This document shows, in pieces, positions 24,066 through 42,535 of a DNA stretch of 64,000 nt. The notes below the pieces were generated by a model. That model did no database searches and was not told the origin of the DNA. It saw only the letters and a list, made by a program, of their open reading frames with translations. Within the stretch, counting starts at the first letter, position 1; each line of letters opens with the position of its first letter. A program made the translations under genes and the position numbers. The DNA is taken from positions 1 through 64,000 of the forward strand of contig JASFQK010000005.1 in NCBI GenBank assembly GCA_050115495.1. Reading direction: 5' to 3'. This stretch comes from Phycisphaerae bacterium (GTDB lineage: Bacteria; Planctomycetota; Phycisphaerae; UBA1845; Fen-1342).

Positions 24066-24673
24066 CACGACGGCTCTGCCACGAGTTTCGCCAGTCGTCC
24101 GTACGGGTCGGCCGCCTCCGCAGCCGCACGTAGCTTCGATCGCACAACGAGCCCGCGTTCGAGTGCATCGTGGAGCGCACGCTGCACCTGCTCAGTCGGC
24201 ACAGTGTCTTCTATCGCGACGTCGAGCAGTGTACGCAGCGGCGTCGTGACCCGAAACGAGCCCCAGGCCGTGCTGTCTTTCGTGGCAAGGTCGGCCTTGT
24301 GCAGCGTGCATTCCGGCGGCGCCTCACGCCGAAACGACCGAGGCACTGTCAGATGGATCTTGCCGGGCAGCATATCGCTGAGTTCGTGCAGGCTGAGGGC
24401 AGACTCGTGTGAGACGACCGCTTGCGGAACGTCATCTCGTCCGCGACTCCACAGCGTCAGCCGGATCAGGTCGTCATGCTCGCTTGGCGGGATCGTCGAG
24501 ATGCGATAGAGCCCACGTCCGACACGCTCGAAGTTGCCGCGGTTTACGTGGTACGTCAGGTGACTGAAGTCGTACCCCCCCTGCTCGGCCTGCCGGGCCG
24601 TGAAGTAGCCACCCTGCGTGGCGGCGACTGCGGTGAGCGTCCGCAGTGCTTTCTGGGTGCTCCGATACGCCAT
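24065..24673 (-). CDS. abiEi: AbiEi-family antitoxin/transcriptional regulator
   Basis: QGGYFTARQA, RVGRGLY, VSHESAL, VTTPLRTLLD; its stop overlaps the toxin start. Confidence 0.9.
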   Translation of the reverse strand: MAYRSTQKALRTLTAVAATQGGYFTARQAEQGGYDFSHLTYHVNRGNFERVGRGLYRISTIPPSEHDDLIRLTLWSRGRDDVPQAVVSHESALSLHELSDMLPGKIHLTVPRSFRREAPPECTLHKADLATKDSTAWGSFRVTTPLRTLLDVAIEDTVPTEQVQRALHDALERGLVVRSKLRAAAEAADPYGRLAKLVAEPS

Positions 24674-24679
24674 GCATAC

Positions 24680-24726
24680 ACCTTCAAATTATTTGAAGGT
24701 TTACGCCCGGATTGTCTTGGTGTCAA
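24680..24726 (-). promoter_or_regulatory. abiE promoter with palindromic operator
   Basis: Minus strand TTGACA-17 nt-TAAACC. Perfect inverted repeat accttcaaat-t-atttgaaggt (24680-24700) overlaps the -10/+1 region. Confidence 0.7.
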
Positions 24727-25060
24727 GGGCAGCACGAAGCCGGCGCGGAGATCATAGCACCCATTGGCTACGTCGCGCCGGTGAGAAGAAGGGTCGAAGC
24801 GCCACGCCCAGCCGGGATGGCTGGCCATCCTCCCCACCGCGCGACTGTCATCGAGAGGGATCGATCCCTACCTAGGCCTGTGCAGGCGACACGACACCAC
24901 CAGGACCGTCGGATAGACACTCTCCGTCGACAACAAATACCCGGGACGGCGGCGTGCACAACGATTCGCCCTTGATAATCCCCGTCAGCGGGCATCAGGT
25001 CACGCGTGCCTCGAAAGTCCAGCAACACACCGAGTACGCGCCGCCGCAGGTCAACGAGGC

Positions 25061-25942
25061 TTACATCATCGCAGGTCGGTCCACCCAGGAGCCGATCTTG
25101 CGCTGAAACATGTAATAGCGCGGCCGGTTTTCCCAATCGAGCGTCTCACACTGACGCACGGCGATTCCCACTTCGCCCTGGCACAATGCATACGCCGTCG
25201 CGGGGGGAATTGCGGTCGGCGTTAACGGCAGTAGAGCCGCCTCGGGGGAGATCAAACCGGCCACCACCATCGCCGCGAGTTGGTCGGGATGGTGATACTC
25301 GTGGCGGCCGCGAGCGACGATCGCCGCAAAGGCGTCTCCGAGCGCGCTCAGCAAGGTAACGTAAGCGGTCAGGACTGATGACCCGATTGCTGCCGAGGGC
25401 CGGATGTCACGCAACGTGCACCAGTGCTCCCAGACTTTTCCACCCTCCTCAGCACTGTCCGGCGATTCGTCGTACTCCTGTCGCGGATTGCGGTTGAACG
25501 CACCGTCGGGATCGACGACGCCCTGTGCTGAGATGCGCCCGGTCGAACTGCCCTCGACGAAGCCGAACAGCGTCGAGCCAGCGGTCAACTTCTCTCCCTC
25601 CACCGAGGCCAGCGCCAATGTTCGCGGTTCGCCGTCGGCTACGTGCGTAACGCTGGCGTAATAGCGGTCGCGCGCGGCGTCATGCGAGATCTCCAGCCAC
25701 AGTAGTCGTCCGTCGGTTGAGCGCCGCACGCCGGCGGCCGCGACCAAGTGACAGGAGACATGCCAGGCGCCGTGGTCAAAGTCCCCGGGATCGCCTGGGC
25801 CGAGCAGCTCCCCGTCGATCACGCTGCGATCCAGCCAGAGTTGTCGCAGCCGCTCTACGTTAGCGGTGTTGTTCACTAGGACGCCGTCCGCTGTTACCTC
25901 AAACCCCAGCGTCCCGCGCTTCCGCAAATTACTCTTGTCCAT
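25061..25942 (-). CDS. Hypothetical protein (His/Trp/Cys-rich motifs)
   Basis: Protein-like ORF of about 293 aa (FDHGAWHVSCHL, GGKVWEHWCTLRDIRP), co-oriented with its neighbours; no family recognised. Confidence 0.7.
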   Translation of the reverse strand: MDKSNLRKRGTLGFEVTADGVLVNNTANVERLRQLWLDRSVIDGELLGPGDPGDFDHGAWHVSCHLVAAAGVRRSTDGRLLWLEISHDAARDRYYASVTHVADGEPRTLALASVEGEKLTAGSTLFGFVEGSSTGRISAQGVVDPDGAFNRNPRQEYDESPDSAEEGGKVWEHWCTLRDIRPSAAIGSSVLTAYVTLLSALGDAFAAIVARGRHEYHHPDQLAAMVVAGLISPEAALLPLTPTAIPPATAYALCQGEVGIAVRQCETLDWENRPRYYMFQRKIGSWVDRPAMM

Positions 25943-26018
25943 TATCCGTACACCAGTTTCAATCGGCCAAGCGTCGCCGGCCGAACAAACTAACGGCCGC
26001 GTTGCCATTGTGTGGCAG

Positions 26019-26468
26019 TCATCTCGCCTTGCGTTCGTCTACTGATTCATCCTCCCAGACCACTGGGATGCCCTCCTCCTCGAACAGCTCCTCGATCAAC
26101 CTGAGTCGCTGTTCATCTCTCGGTCGCTTGGGGAAGACGATTCCCGGGCAGATTCCGTCCAGCGACTCCTGTGATTCGATGTAGCGCCACAGCTTACGAG
26201 CCTGACGTTTTACGTTGCGCCGCACCGCCGCCGGCGTCATCTTGTCCCAATCCGAATGCTTGATCTCAACGATGGCCCGAACTTCGCTACCTTCCTCGGA
26301 CACGAACACGTCCATGCGGCCCGCTTTGCCGCCTAGCTTTTTCGTCGTATTCTCGACTTCTATGTTCCCCTGGGCCGTAGCGCGCCAATCCGCCTGAACT
26401 TGGCGGTGGAACTCCTTTCCCGCCCGCAGTCGCTGAGGTTCTGGCTTGCTCTTTCTGGCCACTGCCAT
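26019..26468 (-). CDS. Small PD-(D/E)XK-like nuclease
   Basis: 'GKEFHRQVQ...GRMDVFV...IVEIK...RQARKLWRY'. Confidence 0.65.
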   Translation of the reverse strand: MAVARKSKPEPQRLRAGKEFHRQVQADWRATAQGNIEVENTTKKLGGKAGRMDVFVSEEGSEVRAIVEIKHSDWDKMTPAAVRRNVKRQARKLWRYIESQESLDGICPGIVFPKRPRDEQRLRLIEELFEEEGIPVVWEDESVDERKAR

Positions 26469-26542
26469 CTCCCGCCATTTCGCGCGTTCGGTGAGTCCGT
26501 TGGCCGTGCTCAACGGCCAATTTCGATTCGCAGGGGCGGCAA

Positions 26543-27280
26543 TCAGGGAATCGTCGCAACCAACTCACGCACGATCGCGCTATTCACCTCGGCAAAGCGA
26601 CCACCGCCACCGCTCTTGGCGCAGGCGGCGCCACGCACACAAACCACGTCTACGCCCGTGGCCCAAATTCCCGGCAGCTCATCCAATGTAATCGATCCGG
26701 CCACCCAGGCTTGCTTCTTCTTCCGATGCAACGCCTCGACCAGCTTTCCAATGTCGTTCAGACTGCAGTAATCCAGCAAGCCCCTGCCTATGAGCTTGTT
26801 GAACGTGTCGATGAGCAGACCGTCCGCTTTGCACTCCGACACCAAGTCGGGGCCGTGCTCAAATGGTTCGAACCAACGGGACATGTCATCATCGACGAAC
26901 ACAGCAGGGAAGCACTGTTTCCGCCGTGGCCCGAGCTTGCGTACCGTTCGCACGATGCTGTCGCCCAGATACGCGGCCGCCTCCGGCGACTGCTCGGCCA
27001 AGCCGAACTTGATCAAATCGGCGCCGGCGACTGCGACACCCAACGCCGCCTGGCAAGCGGACGCCCGCACAGCCTGAACTTCTCCGATGTTAGTGGACAC
27101 CGCGACCTTCGCTAGCTTCGCGCGATTCAGCCGTCCCCGGACAGAAGCGATATTCAGCGGATACGGCGTACCCAGCGCCGACGCCGGATACTCCACGTCC
27201 GCGATCCTCGCTCCTGCCTTCGCCGCCCGCAGCGCTTCCACGGGGCCGCGAACCGATACCAGCAATCGTTGCTTGGCCAT
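26543..27280 (-). CDS. MfnB-like (4-HFC-P synthase/DUF556) TIM-barrel aldolase
   Basis: LLVSVRGPVEA, GARIADV, ADLIKFGL, LLIDTFNK, AGSI, DVVCVRGAAC; GGAGG RBS. Confidence 0.8.
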   Translation of the reverse strand: MAKQRLLVSVRGPVEALRAAKAGARIADVEYPASALGTPYPLNIASVRGRLNRAKLAKVAVSTNIGEVQAVRASACQAALGVAVAGADLIKFGLAEQSPEAAAYLGDSIVRTVRKLGPRRKQCFPAVFVDDDMSRWFEPFEHGPDLVSECKADGLLIDTFNKLIGRGLLDYCSLNDIGKLVEALHRKKKQAWVAGSITLDELPGIWATGVDVVCVRGAACAKSGGGGRFAEVNSAIVRELVATIP

Positions 27281-27409
27281 ATTGTCCGTTACCTCCAGTC
27301 GATTTGCGCCTAGCGCTCCCTATCATTGTTCGCACTCACGTCTATTTGTGCTCATTCCGAACCGCGCCGACCACCATCGCGGAATGGAGTGATGATGGGC
27401 AGGCCCACG

Positions 27410-29068
27410 TCATCGGCTCTTCTTTCTGTGCGTCCTCTTCTTTGCGGTTGCTTTCATCTTGGTTGTGGCGGACGTCGACGCGCCGGTCAGGGGAATGTGG
27501 TAGATCTCGACGGCATAGTTCTCGGCGCGCAGCGCCTTACACTCGTCCATCAGGGTCATCTTGCTGAAGATCGGCAAGTCCTCGGGAATCGTCCTATGCG
27601 GCGCGTCCGCAATCGCGATCATCACTTTGTGGTTTTTGGCGGAAAAGCCGGCGCTGAACTCCTTCCAGAGCTTCTTCTTCAGCCACGCCGGGGGGAGCTT
27701 CGCCAGCAGGCCGTCGCGGAATTCCTGGTTGTTTCGCATGACCTGACCCGAATTCGACCCCTGCTTGGCATGGGCGCTCAGTTTCTGCGAGTCGTACCAG
27801 CGCTTGACGTGAATGAACATACCATCAACGGTCAGTAGATCGCACGGCTCAATGCTCCCGCTGGAGGGAGTCACCACCTCATTCTGATCTAGGCACACGA
27901 AGCCACTCCCTTTGGCCGCAGCCGCAGCATTGTTGTATTTCAACTCGGTGTTGTGTTCCTGCAGATCCCACGGCGGTAGAAACGACGGATCACGCCGCAC
28001 GTCCAGCTCCCTCACCTGGTACTCGATGCGCTCCTTGAAGTCCTGCGCCAACAGGAACCAGTCGCCGTCGGACAGGGCGTACGGCTTCTTTGCGTGCTCG
28101 GTCTCGAACGTCACCAGCTCAATCAGCTTATCCGAGAAAACTTCCTTTCCATGGGAATCAACTGCACGAACGACCGCCTCCAACGCTATCGGGGGTTTCG
28201 CGCCGTCTTTGGAGAGCGCGGTCGCGATCGATGCAACGTCGAAGTCGTCGCATTTCAACCACTCGCCCCCCGGCATGCGCACCTGCACACCGTCAATCCG
28301 CTCCCAGTCGTTGATGTTGCCGGTCAGAATGCCCAGCCGCGCCGGCTCATTTTGAATCGCTTTGTCGAGCTTTTTGATTAGTGCAGCGATGACGGCGGTG
28401 GCTTCAACCTTCACGAAGGGATCGTAGGCAGCGAAGCGCTGATTGCGCGTCTTCGTGTGATGGCTCAGAATCGTCTCGCAGACAGTCCCGAGATCTGCAA
28501 AGAGCAAATCGCCATCCACCGCCAGCGGCGTGGCCCCCGTGATCCGCTTGCCCAGCGTTTTGTCCGACGATGCACCGGTCAGCCGACGAATCCGGTCCCG
28601 ATTGGGGTTGAGCGTGAACTCGGCCAGATCACTCGCCATGGGCGACACGTTGCGTTTCTGCAGGGCTCTCGCGCCAATGCCCTTGGAATCAACCGCCTTG
28701 ATCTGCGATGGACTCAATATCCGTTCGGCAATCTCCCGCCCGTATTCCTTGACGATGTTCTCGCGGTTGAGCGCGTGATGGCCATGCCCGAACGCCACGG
28801 CGCAGTGCCGCCCCGATTTGGTCTTCACCACGACCACCAGTGAATTCGAGACGTTCCTGGGAGGTGGATCGATCGGGCAATGCCCGCGGACCGCGTCGTA
28901 CCAGCCCGGTTCGGTCTCGTAGTTCCGCTGCAGATAAGCCTGCGCTTCGAAGTCGATCCCAGACAGCGCGACGTATTGATACGAATCCGCGCCTTGCAAG
29001 CGGTTCGTAGAAATCGCATCGTCGAACGTCTTAACGTCGGTACTCAGCACGTAAATTGTGAATTTCAT
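27410..29068 (-). CDS. DUF6119/TIGR04141-like 'sporadically distributed' protein with C-terminal nuclease-like motif
   Basis: AVAFGHGHHAL, YALSDGDWF, ELKYN, IEPCDLL...FIHVKR...SAHAKQG, LPIFSKMTL. Confidence 0.75.
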   Translation of the reverse strand: MKFTIYVLSTDVKTFDDAISTNRLQGADSYQYVALSGIDFEAQAYLQRNYETEPGWYDAVRGHCPIDPPPRNVSNSLVVVVKTKSGRHCAVAFGHGHHALNRENIVKEYGREIAERILSPSQIKAVDSKGIGARALQKRNVSPMASDLAEFTLNPNRDRIRRLTGASSDKTLGKRITGATPLAVDGDLLFADLGTVCETILSHHTKTRNQRFAAYDPFVKVEATAVIAALIKKLDKAIQNEPARLGILTGNINDWERIDGVQVRMPGGEWLKCDDFDVASIATALSKDGAKPPIALEAVVRAVDSHGKEVFSDKLIELVTFETEHAKKPYALSDGDWFLLAQDFKERIEYQVRELDVRRDPSFLPPWDLQEHNTELKYNNAAAAAKGSGFVCLDQNEVVTPSSGSIEPCDLLTVDGMFIHVKRWYDSQKLSAHAKQGSNSGQVMRNNQEFRDGLLAKLPPAWLKKKLWKEFSAGFSAKNHKVMIAIADAPHRTIPEDLPIFSKMTLMDECKALRAENYAVEIYHIPLTGASTSATTKMKATAKKRTHRKKSR

Positions 29069-29587
29069 GGGACGGATCCTCAAAGCTAAGCTAGAATCGT
29101 ACGGTTCGAAAACGTCGACTGATCCTCGCCGCCGTCGATATGCATGACGATCCATTGGCACAAACGCGCTCTATGCTTGCTACACACTCCCTTCTTCTCA
29201 ATCACGCCCTATACATCGCGTTGCGCCCGACTTGACGGGGTCGCCCAGAAGGAGGTGTCGCAGATCTGCGCCGCACGGTCGATCATATGCTACGACCTCC
29301 ATTACTGAATACGCACAGGTGCTCTGGTTCCCATCGACGCCACGGAGGACGACAAAGGCCATGTGCTGGTAGCAACGGATGGCGTCAAGGACTCGCTGAT
29401 TGGCATGTCGATCCAATCGGATTGTCTCGGACACCGTGTTCTCATGGGCCTGCACGATGTAAAGAAGAGGATCGCCTGTGCCGACAATGCATCTCAAGAT
29501 TGGTGCCTACAACGAACCGAATAATAGCAGCACTCTGGAGTATTCGTAACCCACAGTTCGACAGAATCGTAACACGTCAACTTGGTC

Positions 29588-30244
29588 TCAACGGGAGAGC
29601 CTGACGTGCTCGTCCCGAAATGCCAGCCGACCGCATCGCTCTCTTAGATCATTCAACATGCGATGGTGACACACACCCAGGCGTTTCCCGCTGCCGCAAG
29701 GGCACGGCTTGCGATTGGCCTTCCGCTTTTGGAGCGACGTCAGCAGCACCATGCCCATGCACCGCTCATCCGTCGCGACGCCGAACAGCTCCCTCAGATC
29801 GTCGATAATTCCCTTGTTGCCATGGTCTAGATCACCGAACGGCAGCTTGCCGTGCTTTTCCAGGTACGAATACCCGTACAGGTACGGCACAACGCACATG
29901 TCCACGAATTCGATTAGCGTTGGGTTCGTGCCGACCGCCATGCGAAGACGAATCGTCGAGCCCAGGCAGAGCGCTTGATCGGTCAGCTTGTGGAACGTCC
30001 GCGGTATCCGCTTACGGCATTCCCACACGCGTGGCAGCTTGCGCGGAAACGTTGCAGGAATCTCGATTTCAACGGCGTACTCGTCGGTCAGCGTCTCCAG
30101 GCCGCGGGGGGCAGCGGTGAATGCGAGATCACCGGCGAGCGCCATCCCCGCGCCGTCGTAAGGCACCAACGCGAGGCCGCGGTACTTCGCGAGCAGCGCG
30201 TCCACGCCCCAGGCCTGGTAGTCCTGTTCGAAAGCCTCACGCAC
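29588..30244 (-). CDS. CBASS type II (short) E2/ubiquitin-conjugating-like protein with SEC-C zinc motif
   Basis: 'IPATFPRKLPRVWE...FHKL..QALCLG' E2 fold with catalytic Cys; CPCGSGKRLGVCH; overlaps the CD-NTase stop. Confidence 0.8.
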   Translation of the reverse strand: MREAFEQDYQAWGVDALLAKYRGLALVPYDGAGMALAGDLAFTAAPRGLETLTDEYAVEIEIPATFPRKLPRVWECRKRIPRTFHKLTDQALCLGSTIRLRMAVGTNPTLIEFVDMCVVPYLYGYSYLEKHGKLPFGDLDHGNKGIIDDLRELFGVATDERCMGMVLLTSLQKRKANRKPCPCGSGKRLGVCHHRMLNDLRERCGRLAFRDEHVRLSR

Positions 30245-31403
30245 TGTCGGACCAGGGTTGCGGCCCCGACTTCACCTGAATTCGCGGCGCGGCGCTCACG
30301 ACGGCCGCTGTCGGCGCGGCGCCGAAACGAATCAGGTCGTCCTCGTCGATCGAGACATCAAGAGACCGCCGGATGAGCTTGGTGAGGTCGTCCGCCCCCG
30401 CCGGCTCTGCCAGGCGCTCAATGTCCTGCCCGACACGTTTGTGCCACGTCCAGAAGTTCTGTTCAAGGCGCGAATCTGATTTCCACTTGTCCGCAAAATC
30501 CTCGTTCGGATTGACCGGATTGGCGATTCGCGGTTCCTGCCCACGAACCAGGCCAGGCATCGCCGCGATGATATCCTGCAGCGCCCCGTACAAATCCGCC
30601 TGACCGTGATATGCCCGCCCTGCAAGCGTGGTGATGATGATCGAGATGGGCTTGAGGTCCATCTGATCCTTGAACATCACGTCACGGTGCTGCTTGAGGA
30701 GTTGAACCGCGCGCTGCAGTATCGTCTTGCACTGGTGCGCCGGTACTTCCTGAATTGACGCGTACGCTCCCTGCTTGACCAGGCTCAGTGCGTGGCGCAT
30801 CTCGCCCTGGCGCATCCGCTTTTCGAACCACTGTGCGAAGCCCTCCGGGTTGCTCTGCGGCCAATCCGGACTGATCACCGAGTAGCCTGGGTGGGTGTTG
30901 TCCGTGATGGCAATGGCGCTTACCGCCTCATCCGGCGCGACGCCCTCCTTCAGCAGCGCTTCCTTGATCAGTTCCTCGTTTGGAATCGCCGGCAGAATGT
31001 CCATGTGGAAGCTGATGTCGTCGGCGTAATCGAGCCGCCAGCAACGCTTCTTCTCAGTTGGCCGCGCCTTCAGGTTGTTGCTGTGCGCGTATGCCTTCAC
31101 GTCATCGCCAATCAGGGCCTTCAGCCCCTGCTGCGTGGTGTCGCCCTTCGTTAGCAGGACATGGCAGACCAGATCCAGGTCGTACTCCTGGTCGGTGAAC
31201 ACCGGGCGCGTCGGCGTACCAAGCCGGAACGACCCCTGTGGAAACACGTCCGGATCCAGATTCGCGATTGGCGAGCCCTCGCGATGGAACCACCTGCCGA
31301 GCGACTTGTAGCGCTCGATGGCCCTTTCGTAGTGCGAAGGAGGAATATCGATCGAGTCCACCAGGTCTTCGAGCACCTGATTCATGAATGCAGCCTTGTC
31401 CAT
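30237..31403 (-). CDS. CBASS CD-NTase (cGAS/DncV-like cyclase)
   Basis: QGSFRLGT, EYDLDL, FHMDILPA, SNPEGFAQWF, PISIIITTL, NPVNPNEDFADKW, C-terminal PQPW; TAATG coupling to the SAVED gene. Confidence 0.92.
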   Translation of the reverse strand: MDKAAFMNQVLEDLVDSIDIPPSHYERAIERYKSLGRWFHREGSPIANLDPDVFPQGSFRLGTPTRPVFTDQEYDLDLVCHVLLTKGDTTQQGLKALIGDDVKAYAHSNNLKARPTEKKRCWRLDYADDISFHMDILPAIPNEELIKEALLKEGVAPDEAVSAIAITDNTHPGYSVISPDWPQSNPEGFAQWFEKRMRQGEMRHALSLVKQGAYASIQEVPAHQCKTILQRAVQLLKQHRDVMFKDQMDLKPISIIITTLAGRAYHGQADLYGALQDIIAAMPGLVRGQEPRIANPVNPNEDFADKWKSDSRLEQNFWTWHKRVGQDIERLAEPAGADDLTKLIRRSLDVSIDEDDLIRFGAAPTAAVVSAAPRIQVKSGPQPWSDSA

Positions 31404-32554
31404 TATTGTGTTTCTCCCGGTGGAACCTGAATCGTCGGCACAAAGCCGCCGAGTTCGTTTACTTGATCGTACACCTGCCACGGCAGGTCGGCCTTGGGCA
31501 TGCGCACGCGACCCAGCTCCACGCAGACCGAAACCGGCGCCGCCGGAAAGACGTGGAGCACCGCGTCCTGCCCGTGATGTTCCTTGATGCGGTCCAGCAG
31601 CGGTCGCGCCAGTCGACGAAAGCGCTGCAACTGCTCGCGTGAACGCAGCAAATCGTTGTTCGGCTGAGCGACCGTGAGGCGCCAAATCGCGACGTCGTTG
31701 CCCAGCACGGCCTTTATGCGATCGTCGGTAACCGTCGCGCTCAGCGCCAGGACCAGCGCGGGCGTTCCTGTTTTCTCCGGCGGTTCTTCGATTAGAAACT
31801 CAAGCCTGCCGTCGTCCTCTTCCCATTGCCAGCCCTTGGGCTCCTTCTTGAGCTGGAAGACGTCGACGTTGGGCAGGTCGGTCAACAGTGACCCGAGCAG
31901 CATGAGCAGCGGTTGCGGCGCCAACGCGAACACCGACAGGTGCTCGATCGCGCCCTCTGCCATCCGCTCACGCACGCGGCGGTCGAACATGGCAATCAAC
32001 TGCCGTGTCTGCAGTGCCCAGAAGTCCGCCGCGTTGTCCTTGAGCGAGCAGTTGTGCATCCCGAGTTCGATCGGCCGGTCCTCCGCCGGGTACCGGTCTG
32101 GAAACAGGTGCTGCTCGGTCGCCTTGCGCGAGAGGGGGGATTGATGGTCGCCGATGTTGGCGCCGTAGAGGACGACATGCGACTTGCGACTCGGATCGAC
32201 GCCGGTGACGCGTTCGATGCGCGTTTCGTGCTCGACCTTCATTTCCTGCAACAGCGCCACGGTGTAGCGGCCGCCGTCCTTTTCCTTGTCGATCGTGCGG
32301 TGACACGCCTGGCACACCAGCATTAAGTTAGCGAGGTCGTTGATTTCCTCCGGTTTCAAGGCCTCGTTGCCGCGCGCCCCGCCCGCACTGAACGCGTAGA
32401 TGTGCGCCTTCTCCGCGATGTTGACCGGCTCCTGAGTGACCGGCGATTTCCACAGGATCTGATTGCAGCCGCGGAATTCGCAATGCCCCGCGGCTTTGCC
32501 CCAGAGCAGGAGTTGCACTGGGTTAGGTATGTAGCGTGTGATCTCTTTGGGCAT
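31403..32554 (-). CDS. CBASS effector, HNH endonuclease-SAVED (Cap5-like)
   Basis: AGHCEFRGC, AHI, NLMLVCQACHRTID; SAVED motifs SVFALAPQPLL..LG and LHVFPAAPVS..VELGR. Confidence 0.9.
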   Translation of the reverse strand: MPKEITRYIPNPVQLLLWGKAAGHCEFRGCNQILWKSPVTQEPVNIAEKAHIYAFSAGGARGNEALKPEEINDLANLMLVCQACHRTIDKEKDGGRYTVALLQEMKVEHETRIERVTGVDPSRKSHVVLYGANIGDHQSPLSRKATEQHLFPDRYPAEDRPIELGMHNCSLKDNAADFWALQTRQLIAMFDRRVRERMAEGAIEHLSVFALAPQPLLMLLGSLLTDLPNVDVFQLKKEPKGWQWEEDDGRLEFLIEEPPEKTGTPALVLALSATVTDDRIKAVLGNDVAIWRLTVAQPNNDLLRSREQLQRFRRLARPLLDRIKEHHGQDAVLHVFPAAPVSVCVELGRVRMPKADLPWQVYDQVNELGGFVPTIQVPPGETQ

Positions 32555-32755
32555 CTCTCAAGCCCTCCACTGGCAGCCCGCCCCTGTCAACCGCAGGGAA
32601 TGACGTGGCAGGCCGGCCACACTCGCACTGTAGACCGCGGCCGACGACCGCTCCAATTCTTAGTGCCGAGCAGCCGAGTCCATTCGCCACTTTTTTTTGT
32701 TTTTCTCGACGCGGCAAATCGCCCTGGCTGCCCGGCAGTACAATGGAGCACAATC

Positions 32756-33397
32756 ATGGAGAACTCGGCGGCATCGGTACTGGCCCGGATGAAGGATGTG
32801 GACCTGCATTCGCTGGTCGAACGCCTCACTATCTATGCGCTCAGGAAAATGCGGAAGCTCCGTTGGCGGGGCATTCGGTACGCGCCGGGGAGGCGTGGGC
32901 TGACGGGGACACGCGGAAATGGACCCGAGGACCTAGTCAGCGATGTCGTACTCCGTGTTATCCAGGGAGAACGCGTCGGTTCATGCCAGGATCAGGCCGA
33001 ACTGGAGCGTTTCCTCCGCAGCGTTATCGACAGTCGCGTCAACCACCTTGTCTGCTCAATTGAAAACCGCTGCACGAATGAGGCGGTGGTTGAGGCCGCG
33101 GCGAAGGCGGATATGCCCAGTCTCGAATCACGGTTGCCGTCCCGCGGCGACGCGACACCGCTTGAGATCATCGTTGATCACGAGGACAAGAAGCGTTTTC
33201 GGGCCGTGGCTCGCAAGGCCGTGGAGGCGGACGCCACGCTCGCGCCGCTGCTTGAGTGTCTCCTGGCTGGCCTGTCACCTGCTGAAGCGGCCGAGTATAT
33301 GGCCGTCGATGTCACGGAGGTCTACGCTGCACGCAAGCGCCTCGATCGAGCTCTCAGCAAGGCCCTCGGCAAACTCGCACGGAGTCAGCCCCAATGA
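32756..33397 (+). CDS. ECF sigma factor-like protein
   Basis: Region 2-like 'PEDLVSDVVLRVIQG...FLRSVIDSRVNH' and region 4 HTH 'GLSPAEAAEYMAVDVTEVYAARKRLDR'; GGAG RBS. Confidence 0.7.
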   Translation: MENSAASVLARMKDVDLHSLVERLTIYALRKMRKLRWRGIRYAPGRRGLTGTRGNGPEDLVSDVVLRVIQGERVGSCQDQAELERFLRSVIDSRVNHLVCSIENRCTNEAVVEAAAKADMPSLESRLPSRGDATPLEIIVDHEDKKRFRAVARKAVEADATLAPLLECLLAGLSPAEAAEYMAVDVTEVYAARKRLDRALSKALGKLARSQPQ

Positions 33398-33831
33398 CCC
33401 CTTCTGAGGAACATGAGAATACGTCCTGGGATCCCGTGTTCGATTTCCTGGCCGACGAGGTTGACGAGATGAGCCAGGAGGAAGTGCGCGCCGAACTGCG
33501 CAGCTTTCGTATAAACGTCGAACCGACGGTCCACCAGATCAAACATGCCCTGCAGGTCACCGAAGCGCGTGAGGCGATGGAAAAGGCGCCCCTCCGCCGC
33601 GCACGGATCCTTGAGAAACTTCGCGACGCGGTGCTTCAGCCAATCGAGAATGCTCGCCGGGATATTCGTGCGTTCCTGCAATCGCAGCGTTTGTCCACAG
33701 TTCACCAAGTGTATTTCAACCGGCTCGAATCAGCCGCTTCGGAAGAGGATCTACGTTCTCTAGTGGAGGATCTTGCAGCCCTCGATTTGTTTGACGATGA
33801 GGACACGAATGGCAAGCAACAGGAGACCTAG
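33394..33831 (+). CDS. Acidic helical hypothetical protein (candidate anti-sigma factor/peptidase substrate)
   Basis: ATGA overlap with the sigma-like gene; overlaps the start of the peptidase gene. Function is inferred from position only. Confidence 0.65.
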   Translation: MTPSEEHENTSWDPVFDFLADEVDEMSQEEVRAELRSFRINVEPTVHQIKHALQVTEAREAMEKAPLRRARILEKLRDAVLQPIENARRDIRAFLQSQRLSTVHQVYFNRLESAASEEDLRSLVEDLAALDLFDDEDTNGKQQET

Positions 33832-34591
33832 TGCCATCCCATTCGCCAAGGCGGCCCAACTCTGGGAGACGTTTGATTGGAAACACCCAGACGCCCTCAA
33901 TCTCGATAATCTGGCGATGGCGCTTGGTGCATTGGTCTTGTATCGCCCGCTTCAATCAGCGGAAGCTCGACTTACGCGGAAAGGTGACCGCGGCATAATC
34001 CGAGTGCGAGACGATCTCGATCCTCCGACACGTCGCCGGTTTGGCGTCGCCCACGAGATTGGCCATTGGCAATTGCACCAATCCGTCTCTCAGCTCTTCG
34101 TGTGTACCGAAGCGGACATGGTCGCCGACTATCGTAATAGCCGTATCGAGGCCGAAGCGAATTCCTTTGCGTCCGCGCTGCTGATGCCGGCGCATCTGTT
34201 TGTTGAGCGAATCCGAAGTCACCGACCGACCTTTGATGAGCTGAAATCACTCGCTGCATATTTCGATACTTCTTTGACCGCCACAGCGATTCGGCGCGTG
34301 GATCTGTCCTCCGACTACTGTGCCCTCGTCGTGTCGCGCGCAGGCCGAGTGAAATGGTGGCGCGGAAGTGAAGACTTTGAGGACGCGTACTGGATTAACC
34401 CTGGTGGTGCGCTTCCACGACAGTCACCCGCCAGAGAGCTTACGGCGACACGTCGTACTTCCGGGCCAGTGCGCACACTGGCGGACGTGTGGGCGGATGA
34501 GCGACACGGGATGTACGCTCAGGAGTTTATCGAGGAATCTGCGTATTTCCCACGCTACGACTTCACCATGACACTAATCTCCCTGCCGTAG
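33809..34591 (+). CDS. ImmA/IrrE-family Zn metallopeptidase (CapP-like)
   Basis: RRRFGVAHEIGHW, EAEANSFASALLMP, FDTSLTATAIR. Confidence 0.9.
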   Translation: MASNRRPSAIPFAKAAQLWETFDWKHPDALNLDNLAMALGALVLYRPLQSAEARLTRKGDRGIIRVRDDLDPPTRRRFGVAHEIGHWQLHQSVSQLFVCTEADMVADYRNSRIEAEANSFASALLMPAHLFVERIRSHRPTFDELKSLAAYFDTSLTATAIRRVDLSSDYCALVVSRAGRVKWWRGSEDFEDAYWINPGGALPRQSPARELTATRRTSGPVRTLADVWADERHGMYAQEFIEESAYFPRYDFTMTLISLP

Positions 34592-35079
34592 GCCCCACCA
34601 AACCACGGGGTATATGCGAGAGTTCTGCGCCAGCTTCGGGAGACCGGCCCGTAGGCATCTTGTGGGGCGAGCGACAGTCAACCGTGGCCACTGTCCGCCG
34701 CGGTGATCGCCCGCGGTCTGCTCGCCGCCACGTAAACCTGCACAGCGCACTCAGGCCTCGGGTAACCCGTCCGCAAGCCATCGGTTTCGCCGCCTGACGA
34801 ACGATGCGCCGCACAAAGCTCCTTGCACCAGCATGGCTTACGCCGCACAAAGTCCAGCCGAGGAGCCCTCCAACTCGGGCATTACCGGCAGGTGGGAGCA
34901 GTAGCACAACATGGCACGATGGCTGGTCTGCCTAAGCCATCCTCATCGGGTCCCAAGGGCCTGCCGGCCTCACGGGGCGAGGACCCGACGACGACGGCTT
35001 CATACGGCAGACCAGGCACAAGCCAGCCGCTCCGAGGACGCAGCCTCCAGGTGCAACGGAAGCGGCCGGCACCAACCAC

Positions 35080-35108
35080 GTCACGGATCACGGTAACGCC
35101 GCCATAAC
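35080..35108 (+). promoter_or_regulatory. GTCAC-N18-CATAAC motif, copy 1 (upstream of type III CBASS)
   Basis: gtcac ggatcacggtaacgccgc cataac, followed by acttctcactaggtgga, similar to the sequence after copy 2. Confidence 0.6.
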
Positions 35109-35591
35109 ACTTCTCACTAGGTGGATCACGCTGACGCTCGCCGCAACGTCTGCAAAGGAAGCTCAATGAGGCCACTGAGGTCATCCGCCCGTGTGTAGGG
35201 TGGTTTCACTGTTTCCCCCGTGGCAGACGCCCTGCCCCGCTTCGCCGGCTAACTCCAGAACGCCGGCAATCGCTCCGAAGCAGACGGTCGGTCGCCCAGC
35301 CCTGGCCGCCGCGGAGGTTTGACCCCAGACTCCCAAGGCCCCGAGCCCACGATACCTCACCATGCAAGGCTCTCCGCAGCTTTGCCATTGTTAGAGTCAT
35401 GTTCGGGAATCGTGGGGACGAGTTCGGTGCCTCCTGCCAATCTGACAGCACCACCAAATCTAGTGGTCAAATGGGCAGGCGTGCACAATTCAGTCGCGAA
35501 ACCAAGTGCCTTGTAACCACTGTCCCTGCAATATGTTACGCCGTTTCTGCTGCGTCACATGAGTGGTACGCGCATTGCTTACGCTCAAGGC

Positions 35592-36578
35592 ATGAACGAG
35601 TCCAAAAACACCATTTCGCCCCCGATCTCCCAAGCCGACGTTCGTCGATTCGCGGAGGGCCGCGTCAACCTGCCACCCGAAGTGGCCAAACAACGTCGTG
35701 AACACGTTAGCGGATTTCGCGAGCGGCTGCAGAAGTGGATCAGAGAGAACCCGAATTGCGGACTCGTCAAGTCGTACCTTTCCGGCAGCCTCGCCAAGGG
35801 CACATCGCTCAGCGTGTCGAGCGACGTAGATATCGCGCTATATCTCAAACATGATGGCGAACGCAAGGTCGACCTGGATCTTGCCAACTGGATCGCCACG
35901 CGAATCCGAAAAGCATTTCCGCAAATGTCTCCGGACCAGATTGAACCCCAGGAGTACTCCGTTAAGGTGACTTTCAAGGGTGCCGGTGTGGACATTGACA
36001 TCGTGCCGGTCTTCTACGACGGCGATCCGGACGACAAGGGCTGGCTCGTCTCGAAAAGAACGGGACGCCTGATGATGACCAGCATCCCGATGCACCGCGC
36101 ATTCATTCGCAAACGTAAGGAAGCCCAACCACAACACTTCGCTCAGGTCGTCCGCTTAGCCAAGTGGTGGGCGGCCGAACAGAAGGGCGCGAACGCCGCC
36201 TTCCGACTGAAATCCTTTATCATCGAATTGATCTGCGCCCACCTCGCGGACAACGGGCACAGCTTCTCCGATTACCGCGAAAGCCTGGAAATTCTGTTCA
36301 ACTATGTTGTCGATACCGAACTGCGGGAGCGAATTGCCTTCGCCGATTACTACGACACCAGCAAGTCGCCCACGACGCTAACGCACCCGATTCAGATCTT
36401 CGACCCGGTCAATCCGGACAACAACACTGCCTCGCAATACACCGAAGAAAATCGTCGGCTGATCGTGACCGCGGCACAGGACGCCCTTGACGCCCTGAAC
36501 GAAGCTCACACTGCCGCTACCAAAGGGCATGCCGTCGAGATGTGGCGGATCGTGCTGGGCAATTCGTTCAGGGGATAG
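35592..36578 (+). CDS. cdnC: CBASS type III CD-NTase (CdnC-like)
   Basis: SGSLAKGT, SDVDIA, DIDIVPV, KSFIIEL, IFDPVNPDNN; first gene of a HORMA-TRIP13-NucC operon. Confidence 0.9.
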   Translation: MNESKNTISPPISQADVRRFAEGRVNLPPEVAKQRREHVSGFRERLQKWIRENPNCGLVKSYLSGSLAKGTSLSVSSDVDIALYLKHDGERKVDLDLANWIATRIRKAFPQMSPDQIEPQEYSVKVTFKGAGVDIDIVPVFYDGDPDDKGWLVSKRTGRLMMTSIPMHRAFIRKRKEAQPQHFAQVVRLAKWWAAEQKGANAAFRLKSFIIELICAHLADNGHSFSDYRESLEILFNYVVDTELRERIAFADYYDTSKSPTTLTHPIQIFDPVNPDNNTASQYTEENRRLIVTAAQDALDALNEAHTAATKGHAVEMWRIVLGNSFRG

Positions 36579-36581
36579 GGC

Positions 36582-37088
36582 ATGACAGCGACATTCACAA
36601 CAACCGAAACATGGTCCTGCACACACGCGCGCTACATTGCCGGCAAAGTTGGGGCCGATTTGCGGCAGATGCAGCAGGCATATGGTCAGCCGACCGATGA
36701 GCACCTTAGTGACCTCGTCGCCGAGTTGACCGCTTACTTGGCTGACGACTACCTCGACTACGTTGAATACGGGTTTCGCCGAGGGGACACGTGGGTCGTC
36801 GCCCACAAGTACACTGCTGGCGAACTCGGCGCTGCAGCCAACGACGACCGCTCAGGGCGTGTGAGACGGGGTGCGAATGTCAGCGGCGCTTACTGGTCCT
36901 CCTACCTTGTCAAGAACGGGCGCTGGTGGAGTCTGTCGCAAGCAGAGCGTGACCGTTATGAATCGCAGATCGCGATCAAACGAACGCCCGGAACCGATGC
37001 AACCCCGGCGTCCGGCGGCTGGGCCACGGAGAGGTCGTATGCGGCAGGTGGCGGAAGCATCAGCCGATCGGGATGTGGGCCAAACTGA
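36582..37088 (+). CDS. cap7: Bacterial HORMA-domain protein
   Basis: 'TTTETWSCTHARYIAGKVGADLRQM...YG.P...VEYGF' typical of HORMA1; operon context. Confidence 0.88.
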   Translation: MTATFTTTETWSCTHARYIAGKVGADLRQMQQAYGQPTDEHLSDLVAELTAYLADDYLDYVEYGFRRGDTWVVAHKYTAGELGAAANDDRSGRVRRGANVSGAYWSSYLVKNGRWWSLSQAERDRYESQIAIKRTPGTDATPASGGWATERSYAAGGGSISRSGCGPN

Positions 37089-38041
37089 TGAGCCATGCGG
37101 ATGTTTTTGAAGATGTTGTGCACCTGCCCAGTGCTCGCGTGCAGACGGAGTACGACCGCCTTGTCGGTCTCGACGAGTACAAGGAGCGGCTTGTTAAAGA
37201 AACGCTTCTGCTGCTTGACCCAGACCTGCTCAGCGAGTGGGACCGGAGATGCCACGGCGGCACACTTGCCGCAATCGACTACTTCCAGTCTCGCCCGCCG
37301 CTCTTCGTGCTTGCCGGCGATGTTGGCACGGGGAAGTCAGCGTTGGCACGCTCCTTTGGAAACGAGGTTGCCAAACGTGCGAGGGCCCCAATTCACCTCT
37401 ACGCCCTGAGCCTCAACGCGCGCGGAAGTGGCGCAGTAGGTGAAATGACACGGCTCATCTCCGGTGCGTTTCAACAGGCTCGCGGAGCCGTCGCAAACAC
37501 CCGAGGCGGCGGCAACAAAGCTGGGCGAGGCGTTATATTGCTCATCGACGAGGCCGATGCCCTCGCTCAATCACGGGAAGCGGCACAGATGCACCACGAG
37601 GATCGTGCCGGTGTGAATGCCCTCATTCGTGGCATTGATGAAATCGCCGCCGAGCGGCTCCCGATTGCAGTTATCATGTGCACGAATCGATTGGGCGCCA
37701 TTGATCCTGCCGTTCGCCGACGTGCCGCCGCAGTGTTCGAATTCCACCGTCCCAACCGTAGGCAGCGTGTTCACGTCCTGCGTGAAGCTCTTCGTGGGAG
37801 CGGCTTGGCGGAATCCGAGCTTGAGGCTCTCGCCGACGCCACCGGAAATAACCGGGAACGTGCTTATGGATACACATATTCGGATTTGACCCAGCGTCTC
37901 GTACCGAGCATCGTGCTCGACGCGTTTCCCGACCGCCCCATTGTCGGCTCCCGTGCGATTGACATCGCGCGGTCCACCGTGCCGACCCCGCCATTCGGCG
38001 TAGCTGGTGACGCAGACCGTGAGGAAAACCACCATGGCTAG
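37088..38041 (+). CDS. cap6: TRIP13/Pch2-like AAA+ ATPase
   Basis: GDVGTGKS, LLIDEADALAQSR, HHEDRAGVNALIRGID, DPAVRRRAA; TGATG coupling. Confidence 0.92.
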   Translation: MSHADVFEDVVHLPSARVQTEYDRLVGLDEYKERLVKETLLLLDPDLLSEWDRRCHGGTLAAIDYFQSRPPLFVLAGDVGTGKSALARSFGNEVAKRARAPIHLYALSLNARGSGAVGEMTRLISGAFQQARGAVANTRGGGNKAGRGVILLIDEADALAQSREAAQMHHEDRAGVNALIRGIDEIAAERLPIAVIMCTNRLGAIDPAVRRRAAAVFEFHRPNRRQRVHVLREALRGSGLAESELEALADATGNNRERAYGYTYSDLTQRLVPSIVLDAFPDRPIVGSRAIDIARSTVPTPPFGVAGDADREENHHG

Positions 38042-38795
38042 CCAGCAGAGAACAGTGGACATCAGGGAGCTTTTCCTGTCCCTGCAAAAGCAGATGCAGG
38101 CGCGACTGGAAACAAACCGTTGTCACATCACGCATCCCGGGTCCAAAGGCGATGCTACCGAGCAATGCTGGCGGGACATGCTCGGTGATTACCTTCCGCA
38201 CCGCTATCAGGTCGAAAAGGCCTTTGTAGTTGACTGCGAGGGTGGTTTGAGTGAGCAAATCGATGCTGTGATTATTGACCGTCAATACTCCCCGCCACTG
38301 TTCTGCCAAGATGGGGAGAAGTTCGTTCCGGCGGAGAGCGTATACGCCGCCTTTGAAATCAAACAGGAACTTACACGCGACTACATCCTCTATGCGGGAC
38401 AGAAGGTTGCTTCCGTGCGGCGACTTCGCCGCACATCGGCACAGATCACCCACGCGGGCGGCACTTTCAAGCCACGCTCGCCGTTTCCCATAATCGGCGG
38501 GATCGTAGCGCTCGCGAGTAGCTGGAACCCGCCACTCGACGGTCCATTCCGGAGCGCATTGTGCGAACTTGCGCGAGACGAACAACTCGATATCGGTTGC
38601 GTCCTGCAAGCGGGCGGCTTCGAGTGCTCCTGGGATGGCGGTGATTGCGAGGTGCGTGTCAGCGAGAGCGGCGACGCGCTGATCACTTTCTTCCTTCGGT
38701 TGCTTTCCAGACTGCAGGGCTTGGGCACTGTACCCGCAATGGACCTGGAGGAGTATGAGCGGGCACTCAGCCTGCGGGGACCAAAGGTAGAGTAG
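38034..38795 (+). CDS. nucC: NucC cyclic-oligoadenylate-activated endonuclease
   Basis: HPGSKGDATE, YLPHRYQV, SEQIDAVIIDRQYSP, PAESVYAAFEIKQ. Confidence 0.92.
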   Translation: MASQQRTVDIRELFLSLQKQMQARLETNRCHITHPGSKGDATEQCWRDMLGDYLPHRYQVEKAFVVDCEGGLSEQIDAVIIDRQYSPPLFCQDGEKFVPAESVYAAFEIKQELTRDYILYAGQKVASVRRLRRTSAQITHAGGTFKPRSPFPIIGGIVALASSWNPPLDGPFRSALCELARDEQLDIGCVLQAGGFECSWDGGDCEVRVSESGDALITFFLRLLSRLQGLGTVPAMDLEEYERALSLRGPKVE

Positions 38796-39034: not shown

Positions 39035-40579
39035 CTATACCGGCAGCGCAAGGCAGCCATCTGTCCGCGCAGATCGTCGCTCAGAGGTACGTGCAGCCCC
39101 CGACGGCGGCGGGCTCTCGTGTAGCTTGGGCTGTCGAGCGGAGCCGGACGGCACGCAGGCCTGCACATCGCGCTTGCCGAATGGCGGCGAAGTGTGGCAT
39201 GCTGATGCCATGGATACATCACTAGAACATTCAACAAACTCGATGGAGCGAGCAGCGTTCCACGTAGCGCTGGCCGAGAACGTCGATGCGGTCCTGGACG
39301 CGCTTGACTCGATGCGTGGCGAGGCGGAGCTTTGCGGCGAGCGCTGGGCGGCACAGTTCTTTGCCCGTGTTGCGGCCGTGTTGCGACAGTTCCGCGTGAG
39401 CTGGCCGTCCGGCCACGTCACGCACGAGGCTGCGCCTGCTACGATGGCTCGCACTCTCTCCAGACCCGGCGACGAGCACTGAGATGCAACCGCCTCGCGC
39501 TGGGCCTGGGCCAGCATCGCACCGGCGGCATCCTCGTCGCCCTGGGACACGTACGCCCACAGCCCCCGGCTCACAACCGCCACGAACAACCCGCACGGAT
39601 TACGGCGGCCGACGCGCAATGCGTGAACCGCCGCAGCGTAGAAACGCAGCCGATCAGCGGGTGTGTTCGCCAACAAGCCGGCCCGGACCACACGCCGGAA
39701 TCTACTCATCAGGCCGTCGGCGTCGCGCAGTTCCTGGAGCCGCATCGCTCGCAGGCTCGCACCTCGACCATCCCCAGACACCACGGCCCGTTTCTGGTTC
39801 TTCACGTCCGTAAGGAGTTTTCTTTTCTCTATGGAGGGTGACAATCCGGTGCTTCGCCGCACTCCGCGGGGTGGTGTTTCAGTGTCGTATGGTATGGCGT
39901 GCAGCTCGATCAATGCGCCCCAGCGGCGGCGCCAGGCGCAGTTATCCACAGAGCGTGTCACCCAACCCAGCGCGGCGAGTTCTGCGGCGGCGCGTTTCAC
40001 ACTCCGCTCGTGGAGTCCGAACGCCTCTGCGACGAACCGAATCGAGCACCGCCCTCGTGCGGAATAGGCCCCGCCCCGCTGCAGATAACAGCATCGGCAC
40101 GCCGTGCCCAGCAGGAACGCTGCCGATGCCGCGTTGCCGCGCCATGCCAGGTAACGCAGCACACGCCGTGGAACCGGCACGCGCCCGGCACGCCTCAGCC
40201 GCGCGAGCATCGGTTCCACATCGCTACCAGGCGTCTCGCAGTCGTTGACGCGCAACACGCCGTCGGCCTGGGCCAGCACGCCCACCGCCAGTAGTTCCCG
40301 CAGTACGGCGCGGATCTGCGTCGGACGCGCGCAGCCGACGAGTTGCTGAAGCTCGCCGACAATCTCCGCGGCGACGATACGATAAGGTCGATAAGTGCAA
40401 CCACGCCGTCGAAATGAACGCTCAGTCGCCTCACGACGCGCTGCAACCTCCTGCAATGCCAGAAACACACGCACCGCCAGCCACGAAAGCCCGCTGGAAC
40501 GATACGCCGTCCATACCCGACAGAACTGCTTGACCGGTAGCAGTTGGTAGCCCCCTGGGGGGCAATTCGATTCCGCCAT
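39035..40579 (-). CDS. Winged-HTH protein, putative replication initiator of the element
   Basis: GGAGG RBS; HTH 'SIRFVAEAFGLHERSVKRAAAELAALGWV'; divergent from parA; internal DnaA box. The C-terminal third may be spurious. Confidence 0.5.
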   Translation of the reverse strand: MAESNCPPGGYQLLPVKQFCRVWTAYRSSGLSWLAVRVFLALQEVAARREATERSFRRRGCTYRPYRIVAAEIVGELQQLVGCARPTQIRAVLRELLAVGVLAQADGVLRVNDCETPGSDVEPMLARLRRAGRVPVPRRVLRYLAWRGNAASAAFLLGTACRCCYLQRGGAYSARGRCSIRFVAEAFGLHERSVKRAAAELAALGWVTRSVDNCAWRRRWGALIELHAIPYDTETPPRGVRRSTGLSPSIEKRKLLTDVKNQKRAVVSGDGRGASLRAMRLQELRDADGLMSRFRRVVRAGLLANTPADRLRFYAAAVHALRVGRRNPCGLFVAVVSRGLWAYVSQGDEDAAGAMLAQAQREAVASQCSSPGLERVRAIVAGAASCVTWPDGQLTRNCRNTAATRAKNCAAQRSPQSSASPRIESSASRTASTFSASATWNAARSIEFVECSSDVSMASACHTSPPFGKRDVQACVPSGSARQPKLHESPPPSGAARTSERRSARTDGCLALPV

Positions 40580-40868
40580 AATCCTCCACGGTTATTAAGG
40601 GCTCGCAACAAGCGGAGCCGGCCGGCGCGGGAAGCCGCGCTTTGCCGGTTGACCTCAGCGGTGGATGTGATACGGTCGAATTTGATCATCGAATTGTCTC
40701 ACCATCCATCGAACCGCCAGCGTTACCGGCACGATCTGCCCTGATCGTACCGGGACGCGCCGGTCTTCCTGCTGTCCTGCCACAGGCGAGCCTGGTTTTC
40801 GAGTTTCAGCACTAGCATACGATGTGTACACGGTGGCGCAAGATGCAAAACTGCTGGCAACAACACAC

Positions 40869-40906
40869 GTATGCCGGCATGCGTGCGTTTATGCTTGCAT
40901 GCTTGC
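40869..40906. repeat. Short GCNT/ATGC-periodic repeats upstream of parA (candidate centromere/operator)
   Basis: gtat gccg gcat gcgt gcgt ttat gctt gcat gctt gc. Confidence 0.45.
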
Positions 40907-40929
40907 CCGAACTGTGGCACGTTTGCTTC

Positions 40930-41601
40930 ATGATCATCGCGTTTGTCAACCAGAAGGGAGGTGTGGGCAAAACCACGCTTGCCGTGCACTTCGCACTGTG
41001 GTGCGCCCAGCGCGGCCGGCGCGTGGCGCTCATTGATACCGATTGCCAGCAGACTGCGACGAAGTGGATACGGACCGCCGACCCCAGTATCACACTGCGG
41101 GCGCAATTCGAGGCTGACGCCGTGATCGAAGAGGCCGACCGACTGTCCGGTGCACACGACTTGGTTGTCGCCGACGGTCCAGCCAACCTAGCAGATTGTA
41201 CGCGTGCGTTGCTGCTGGTCGCCGATCGAGCAATAGTCCCGTGCGGTCCTACGCTCCCGGACCTGGAAGCGACCACCGCCACGTTACGGATCCTGGCCAA
41301 CGCCAGACGCGTGCGGAGTGACCGGCTTCCACAACCGTTGCTCGTGCTGGCCCGGCTACGCAGCCCACGATACCGGCTGAGCCGTGAGGCGCTCGCCGCC
41401 GCGCAGACACTGGCCGTCCCCGTGGCCCGCCGACCGCTACCGCTACGCGAAGCGATCGCCGACGCCCCCGGACAACGTTGCGCGGTATGGAGCCTGGGCT
41501 CAGCCGCCCGGGCTGCAGCCGACGAGATGCTGGCCCTGATGAAGGAGATTGACTGCCATGCCGAATGCCAGAAGGTCGGCGCTCGAACAACTGAGTGCTG
41601 A
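40930..41601 (+). CDS. parA: ParA-family partition ATPase (short, type Ib-like)
   Basis: [28 protein letters not shown]. Confidence 0.9.
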
Positions 41602-41905
41602 ACAACGCGAGTTCCTGAACGACGCCGACGGCCGCCGGGCGCCATCCGTAACATTGACGGCTGGCACGCAAATCCGGTCGGCCGAGGCGGCGCCGTGTCA
41701 CATCGGAGCGGCGCCGACCGTTGCCAATGTCCACGGCCAGTCGCTGCGCTCGGTTACGCTACGGCTAACGCCGGCCACCGCCGATGCCCTGCGCCGCGCA
41801 GCCGCACAGCGCGGCTTGCGCTACGAGCACCCCTTCACCCAGCAATCGATCGCCGAGGCGGCCATCCGTGCCTGGCTCGCGCGACAGGGCTACCCGCCTC
41901 AGTAA
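41558..41905 (+). CDS. Small ParA partner (ParG/ribbon-helix-helix-like)
   Basis: AAGGAG RBS; overlaps the parA end; C-terminal '[18 protein letters not shown]...[14 protein letters not shown]'. Confidence 0.65.
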
Positions 41906-41961
41906 TTCCGCACATCTGCAGTCGCAGCCTGCCGCTTGTGCATGCCCCAGCGACATTACAC

Positions 41962-41990
41962 GTCACACTCTCGCCCATAGCCCGCATAAC
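41962..41990 (+). promoter_or_regulatory. GTCAC-N18-CATAAC motif, copy 2
   Basis: gtcac actctcgcccatagcccg cataac, 60 nt upstream of ATG 42051. Confidence 0.65.
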
Positions 41991-42050
41991 ACTCTCACCA
42001 GGTTGGAGCCGCGCAGTCCCGCGCGAAAGTTTGAAAACAGGAGGTATATC

Positions 42051-42287
42051 ATGTCAAAATCCACCAAACCCCCCGTTCACGAAATCCGTTTCGGTTACGC
42101 AAAGGCCGTCATCTGGGAGAACGACACGAGCAACGGCACGCGCTACAACGTGACCGTCGCCCGGCTCTACAAAGACGATGGCGGTGAATGGAAGGAGACG
42201 TCCAGCTTCGGCCGCGACGACCTGCTCGCTTTGGCCAAGGCCCTGGACCACGCTCACACGTGGATTCACGCGCAGCGGGAAAGCTAA
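42051..42287 (+). CDS. 78-aa protein, possibly PC4/SpoVG-like nucleic-acid binder
   Basis: Strong AGGAGGT RBS; PVHEIRFG..KAVIWEN...YNVTVARLYKD..EWKETSSFGRDDLL. The fold is inferred. Confidence 0.75.
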   Translation: MSKSTKPPVHEIRFGYAKAVIWENDTSNGTRYNVTVARLYKDDGGEWKETSSFGRDDLLALAKALDHAHTWIHAQRES

Positions 42288-42384
42288 ACACCCGTCGCGT
42301 CTTGAGGTTGACTGCCCGCCGCGTCGGCGACGCAGCCGTCGAAGTTTGTCCTCGCGGGTCCGGCGCTCCACCTGGCCCACGAAT

Positions 42385-42413
42385 GTCACACTCCCAGCAC
42401 ATTCCCGCATAAC
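42385..42413 (+). promoter_or_regulatory. GTCAC-N18-CATAAC motif, copy 3
   Basis: gtcac actcccagcacattcccg cataac, upstream of the DUF932 gene. Confidence 0.65.
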
Positions 42414-42535
42414 TCTGGTAGGACAAACCATCAGCCCAGATCGGCCGGCATGGCGTTTTCGACTCATGAGAGACCGGTGGTGCAAAGCGGCCGTTGTGAA
42501 GGTTTGTCCAAACCCTATTTACGAAAGGAAACGTC

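Follow-up and report, generated by a model that had tools for sequence, protein, structure and literature searches.

Defence controllers that sense single-stranded DNA (ssDNA) have been described, and CapW, CapH/CapP and also CapK/CapS, as presented in Calloji et al. (2026; 10.64898/2026.05.16.725639), all act by lifting repression. In CapH the cleavage site lies between F82 and R83, in the first helix of a two-helix C-terminal domain, and the mutation R83A blocks cleavage. It has also been reported that 24 of 408 CBASS systems carry capH and capP together with a predicted sigma70 factor (Lau et al. 2022; 10.1101/2022.04.27.489752). The parts of that report's main text covered here hold no test of the sigma-linked form, and the wider literature covered, which included few subscription papers, yielded no study of a CapP-gated, sigma-linked form.

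The 24 systems are probably the same form as the gene triad analysed here, or a sister form of it. The association of a sigma-like gene, a small partner and a peptidase, put forward in the original prediction, is real as a linkage, but it had already been recorded for CBASS by Lau et al. (2022).

The triad and its gene products

The window (the whole stretch of 64,000 nucleotides that was analysed) carries three overlapping genes on the plus strand, located where they had been predicted: gene 1 for a sigma-like protein (32756..33397, 213 aa), gene 2 for its partner protein (33394..33831, 145 aa) and gene 3 for CapP, an M78/IrrE zinc peptidase (33809..34591, 260 aa). The sigma and partner genes overlap by ATGA, and the partner and capP genes by 23 nt, with the ATG at 33809 chosen as the capP start to match that of the closest homologue. 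The closest homologues were named Planctomycetes and Phycisphaerales, so that the host is probably a Planctomycete. The predicted position of the triad, divergent from a type II CBASS and upstream of a type III CBASS, was borne out by Pfam/PADLOC-type gene assignments on both sides. On the minus strand, the divergent CBASS starts with an HNH-SAVED effector gene (31403..32554), the first gene of the likely target operon, followed by a CD-NTase (30237..31403) and an E2 with a SEC-C motif (29588..30244). Because this E2 stands alone, with neither E1 nor JAB seen beside it, the operon was assigned to the short type II form. The same short form was also observed opposite the triads of loci L001, L027 and L032 and of Cereibacter sphaeroides plasmid pDE, with the effector exchanged between loci (patatin or HNH-SAVED). 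The type III CBASS (CD-NTase, HORMA, TRIP13 and NucC; 35559..38795) lies about 1 kb to the right of the triad on the same plus strand. No credible ORF and no CapH remnant were found in the roughly 1 kb between capP and this operon (34592-35558), and a search for a sigma70 consensus promoter in 32500-35700 found none.

Further genes of the island were observed on both sides. On the minus strand it continues over 23217-29161 with an AbiEi/AbiEii toxin-antitoxin pair, a DUF6119 (TIGR04141) protein, a gene resembling 4-HFC-P synthase and two ORFs of 315 and 164 aa without annotation. To the right of the type III CBASS, the interval 39035-43603 encodes an HTH-bearing 514-aa protein, a ParA-like protein and a DUF932 gene; DUF932 together with an integrase likewise flanks the triad of locus L049, and this parallel suggests that the island is carried by a Planctomycete integrative element.

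As a single sequence, the gene 1 product gave no match in a Pfam scan, and its match to TIGR02937 was sub-threshold (E 2e-4). The profile of its family, however, matched SigH (E 2.3e-5) and a set of 21 host ECF sequences (hhalign 94.9%). In searches with the AlphaFold model, the top Foldseek rows were sigma factors, and a second fold search, likewise headed by sigma factors, gave a Z of 10.2 on sigma4. The model contains sigma2 and sigma4 but no sigma3, with a long, low-confidence linker at residues 108-140. Family profile and structural model thus agree with the predicted ECF-like sigma, and on both grounds the protein is taken as a real but divergent ECF-fold sigma factor. In region 2.2, which shows partial degeneration, A/S-E stands at the core-binding position that is 'Q/E' in ECFs; therefore, polymerase binding is not assured.

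The gene 3 product was recognized as Peptidase_M78, and matches to PADLOC capP (E 5e-58 over residues 27-259) and to the Thauera CapP structure 7T5T (E 7e-16) uphold its predicted identity and show the CapP layout, in which HTH and GAF parts accompany the HExxH peptidase. The active site consists of H82, E83, H86 and E114 (zinc ligands and catalytic glutamate). The cysteine switch (C99 and D103) and the ssDNA-groove residues R75, W183 and Y250 correspond to Thauera C113, D117, R89, W197 and Y265, and the W280-equivalent has no counterpart in the window CapP; the E. coli numbering of Calloji et al. (2026) was transferred by offset. Among 27 triad peptidases, H82, H86, D103, E114 and W183 are kept in all, and E83 and C99 in 26. 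Judged from these residues, the window CapP is likely to be activated by ssDNA. In one locus from Pontibacter (L066:5326-7046), umuD and a Y-family polymerase come after the triad, and the switch cysteine of its CapP is replaced by D. In the CapP tree the 27 triad peptidases split from three XRE-linked ones with a support of 0.92, three outgroups being too few to claim a single origin. The genome encodes three M78 peptidases, of which the other two have an XRE domain next to them or fused on, unlike the window CapP. The nearest XRE HTH (PF01381) lies at C5:53582, about 19 kb from the triad, which, together with a partner devoid of HTH, agrees with the predicted lack of an XRE repressor at the triad.

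The partner is the acidic protein that had been predicted (145 aa, pI 4.65). It is all-helical and soluble, contains no hydrophobic or transmembrane segment, and has no HTH in its structural model; Pfam scans likewise found none in 122 family members. The family comprises 386 representatives at 50% identity (E up to 0.001), and its strongest conservation is C-terminal, with the consensus YFRKLE...DLxSLLEDL. Fold searches returned nothing beyond generic helices and three-helix bundles of small size: no clear solved fold, and no clear match to the known anti-sigma folds ASD and ZAS. The two C-terminal helices (102-113 and 117-139) are weakly CapH-like. The PADLOC capH model, which may itself include sigma-linked partners, was weakly matched by 34 of the 122 homologues (best E 5.5e-5; the next family had 5 matches); none of the 40 closest homologues matched it, and 15 of 40 distant ones examined did, with all alignments reaching the C-terminal end of both proteins. 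Of two CapH proteins compared directly with the partner, one gave a marginal result and the other a null result, the Thauera CapH not being significant. At the CapH cut position, 48 of the 122 partners have the dipeptide FR, and the window partner has FN, with N instead of R after F108. This similarity weakly suggests some relatedness between the partner and CapH, also in the region that CapP cuts. By analogy with CapH, F108|N109 in the first of the two C-terminal helices is a candidate cut, and the partner is probably a CapP substrate, for which the evidence is suggestive. Two natural fusions were also found, one joining the sigma-like protein to the partner and one joining the partner to CapP, each of them a singleton cluster that could be a frameshift. 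In locus L001 (5891-6409), the partner frame crosses a run of N and its end is uncertain.

Linkage of the triad and its twin promoter

In 35 metagenome loci found via the sigma, the partner was the next gene in 32, the exceptions being one locus at a contig edge and two distant sigmas; CapP came third in 23 of the 24 loci with room for it. Since gene order was kept across many loci, the triad arrangement was confirmed as real and not due to chance. The survey of neighbourhoods also agreed with the expected link with defence: after exclusion of the window and removal of four near-duplicates, scanning of the upstream genes showed, as a raw count, a defence operon in divergent orientation opposite 14 of 18 related loci, of four kinds (3 CBASS, 3 Bil, 7 other ubiquitin-like operons and 1 Pycsar, with nothing recognised in the other 4). 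Two triads (L025:5127-5678 and L035:9066-9815) face small genes that matched neither Pfam nor PADLOC and that are, by position, candidate new defence genes.

The distribution is patchy, with the triad found in none of 6 genomes of the genus and 2 of 71 of the family, and with two strong matches in a phylum sample of 400 genomes. Nine selected plasmid regions, reached via CapP, held seven homologous triads (98% for the partner profile and 99% for the sigma) and two classical CapH/CapP pairs; direct tblastn of the window sigma and partner against plasmids gave no match. For example, plasmid pDE of C. sphaeroides 2.4.1 carries a homologous triad, RS22335/RS22330/RS22325, opposite a CBASS with cyclase, E2 and HNH-SAVED genes. 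The triad is thus a portable module that travels as a unit.

The regions upstream of the triads share the motif GG(A/C)AAA-N14-CGGCA, which occurs on either strand in a back-to-back arrangement. In 28 upstream regions it gave 51 matches, 4 of which were judged spurious, against a shuffle mean of about 2, and both arms were present in 22 of the 28; these triad loci are also the ones that supplied the motif. Spacing within each arm is fixed at 14, and the distance between the arms varies from about 7 to 24 nt. In the window, the defence-facing arm (32664..32688, minus strand) reads GGCGAA (32688-32683), 14 nt and CGGCA (32668-32664), and the sigma-facing arm (32713..32744, plus strand) reads GGCAAA (32713-32718), 14 nt and CGGCA (32733-32737), followed by TACAAT (32739-32744). 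With a matrix built without the window, the two arms scored 20.0 and 16.1 bits of 20.4 and ranked first and third in the 64 kb, and they formed the only divergent motif pair in the 5.97 Mb genome. A relaxed pattern run over 401 genomes gave four matches, namely two triads and two unrelated places, and missed one triad genome; the two matches at no triad (G330 and G178) were treated as chance. Viral contigs yielded no twin pattern, and the motif was absent from the gaps of the two classical CapH/CapP pairs.

The motif spacing fits the -35 and -10 elements of the general ECF promoter layout and would put the start some 9-10 nt downstream. Seven cultured carriers with distant sigmas retain a mirror pair, whose best match covers 10-11 of 11 letters where shuffles mostly reach 8-9. 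Their upstream hexamers are different ones, such as TCCGAG or TCTGAA, which would be expected of an element that the sigma reads. The sigma may therefore recognise the motif before its own gene. A TAnnnT element 8 nt behind CGGCA occurs in 15 of 23 sigma-facing arms against 1 of 24 defence-facing arms, and in the window the housekeeping-type -10 (TACAAT) is on the sigma-facing arm only. With no housekeeping -10 on the defence arm, there is therefore no housekeeping promoter there to repress.

Proposed switch and competing explanations

The model that we favour, to which we assign a probability of about 0.6, is that ssDNA-activated CapP cleaves the partner, acting as an anti-sigma factor, so that the sigma is freed and fires the divergent CBASS. 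Onto the observed gene content, residues, linkage and motif, it would add binding, cleavage and a direction of control, forming a portable, self-contained transcription switch. Under this scheme, the sigma-facing arm would carry a promoter of housekeeping type that yields coupled basal amounts of sigma, partner and CapP, and the partner would bind the sigma and hold it off RNA polymerase. ssDNA from damage or infection would then open the cysteine switch, as demonstrated for other CapPs, whose residues are conserved here. By analogy and from the weak CapH homology, CapP would cut the partner near F108|N109 and free the sigma, perhaps after further degradation of the cut partner. The sigma would fire both arms of the twin motif, hence its own operon as well as the divergent CBASS, and newly made partner could turn the switch off again. 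The ECF geometry of the twin promoter and the CapH-like end of the partner lend added support to positive control. Counting against the model are the partner's lack of likeness to any known anti-sigma fold, the weakness of the CapH link in the window clade, the N that the window partner has after F108 in view of the block by R83A in CapH, the degenerate sigma without a Pfam sigma match, the fact that each fusion is a singleton, and, for the motif, its origin in the triad loci together with the stray matches and the missed genome of the relaxed pattern.

The opposite sign of control also has to be weighed. The partner, alone or with the sigma-like protein, could repress at the inverted motif until CapP cleavage relieves it, the sigma-like protein then being a DNA-binding module instead of an initiation factor. 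The twin motif does read as an inverted repeat, the partner has a CapH-like C-terminus (such genes being listed as capH by Lau et al. 2022), and the sigma is degenerate. However, an acidic partner family in which neither the model nor the Pfam scans revealed an HTH is a poor fit to a repressor, the fixed spacing within the arms and variable distance between them suit two promoters and not one dimer site, and the defence arm has no housekeeping -10; we thus consider repression unlikely. It is less likely again that the partner is a co-activator or chaperone which the sigma needs, or that CapP cuts the sigma itself, with the protease as an off-switch or timer. The sigma-like+partner fusion and the long linker of the sigma model would fit such roles, but the characterised CapP/IrrE/ImmA enzymes all activate genes by cutting a negative regulator, and the CapH-like end sits in the partner. 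The lowest chance is given to the freed sigma being mainly an effector that sequesters RNA polymerase and arrests growth, with firing of the local promoter secondary: release of CalpS causes growth arrest in E. coli (10.1101/2024.05.08.593097), yet a conserved promoter pair aimed at exchangeable defence cargo points to targeted transcription.

Control of both CBASS operons by the triad was not supported: no copy of the promoter precedes the type III CBASS (the best score in 34592-35620 was 1.6 bits, against 16-20), and no second CBASS was found downstream of the triad in the related loci scanned. A strong, single half-site at 38021 was considered as a NucC promoter and rejected, because it overlaps the NucC start. 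The type III CBASS is therefore probably not a direct target, and the setting between two CBASS operons is a local one. The module might still drive this operon by read-through across the 1 kb gap, the two being on the same strand with no plus-strand terminator-like site called in 34592-35558; but given the missing motif copy and downstream genes that vary freely among relatives, including opposite-strand and housekeeping genes, we regard read-through as improbable.

Beyond this locus, the ssDNA-gated release of a sigma factor by CapP could be generalized. The triad may represent a widespread branch of CapH/CapP in which an anti-sigma domain replaced the DNA-binding domain of the repressor and the cleavable C-terminus was kept, giving an ssDNA-gated sigma cascade with a private twin promoter that can serve any defence operon, and in which the promoter co-varies with the sigma clade (Planctomycetota, Alphaproteobacteria and Bacteroidota). 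This extension is tentative, and we place it slightly below an even chance.

Relation to described systems

The triad is a real, uncharacterised system, to which this analysis adds the logic of its promoter, a candidate cut site like that of CapH and the carrier C. sphaeroides 2.4.1, in which a natively carried homologous triad makes the model directly testable. If the model is true, the partner would define a new soluble anti-sigma family (the 386 representatives above) with a defined promoter, the switch would account for the silence that toxic operons (CBASS, Bil and Pycsar) keep in a new host, and it would offer an orthogonal DNA-damage-inducible expression part.

In its proposed logic the triad resembles CalpL-CalpT-CalpS (10.1101/2024.05.08.593097) and Csx29-Csx30-CASP-sigma (PMC10028731), anti-phage systems in which a protease cuts a soluble anti-sigma factor and frees an ECF-like sigma. 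Those systems, as described in the parts of the two reports covered, use Lon or CHAT proteases, are triggered by cA4 or target RNA and belong to type III CRISPR loci, whereas the triad has an M78 metallopeptidase in place of a Lon-SAVED or CHAT protease, a predicted ssDNA trigger, no CRISPR link and exchangeable cargo. The DdvA-DdvS system of Myxococcus xanthus (PMC11506125) is similar in that an ECF sigma/anti-sigma pair controls CBASS operons. However, DdvA is a transmembrane, zinc-binding anti-sigma factor cut by RseP, and the triad partner has no such hydrophobic segment and its protease gene is adjacent. With CapH/CapP the triad shares the peptidase family with its cysteine switch and ssDNA groove, the location upstream of a divergently oriented defence operon, and the weakly CapH-like C-terminus of the partner. 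It differs from what is described of CapH/CapP in that its partner has no XRE HTH, in that a dedicated sigma and a twin ECF-type promoter stand in place of an operator, and in that its output would be activation. If this is true, the sigma-release form would be the positive-control counterpart to the ssDNA-sensing controllers that act by derepression.
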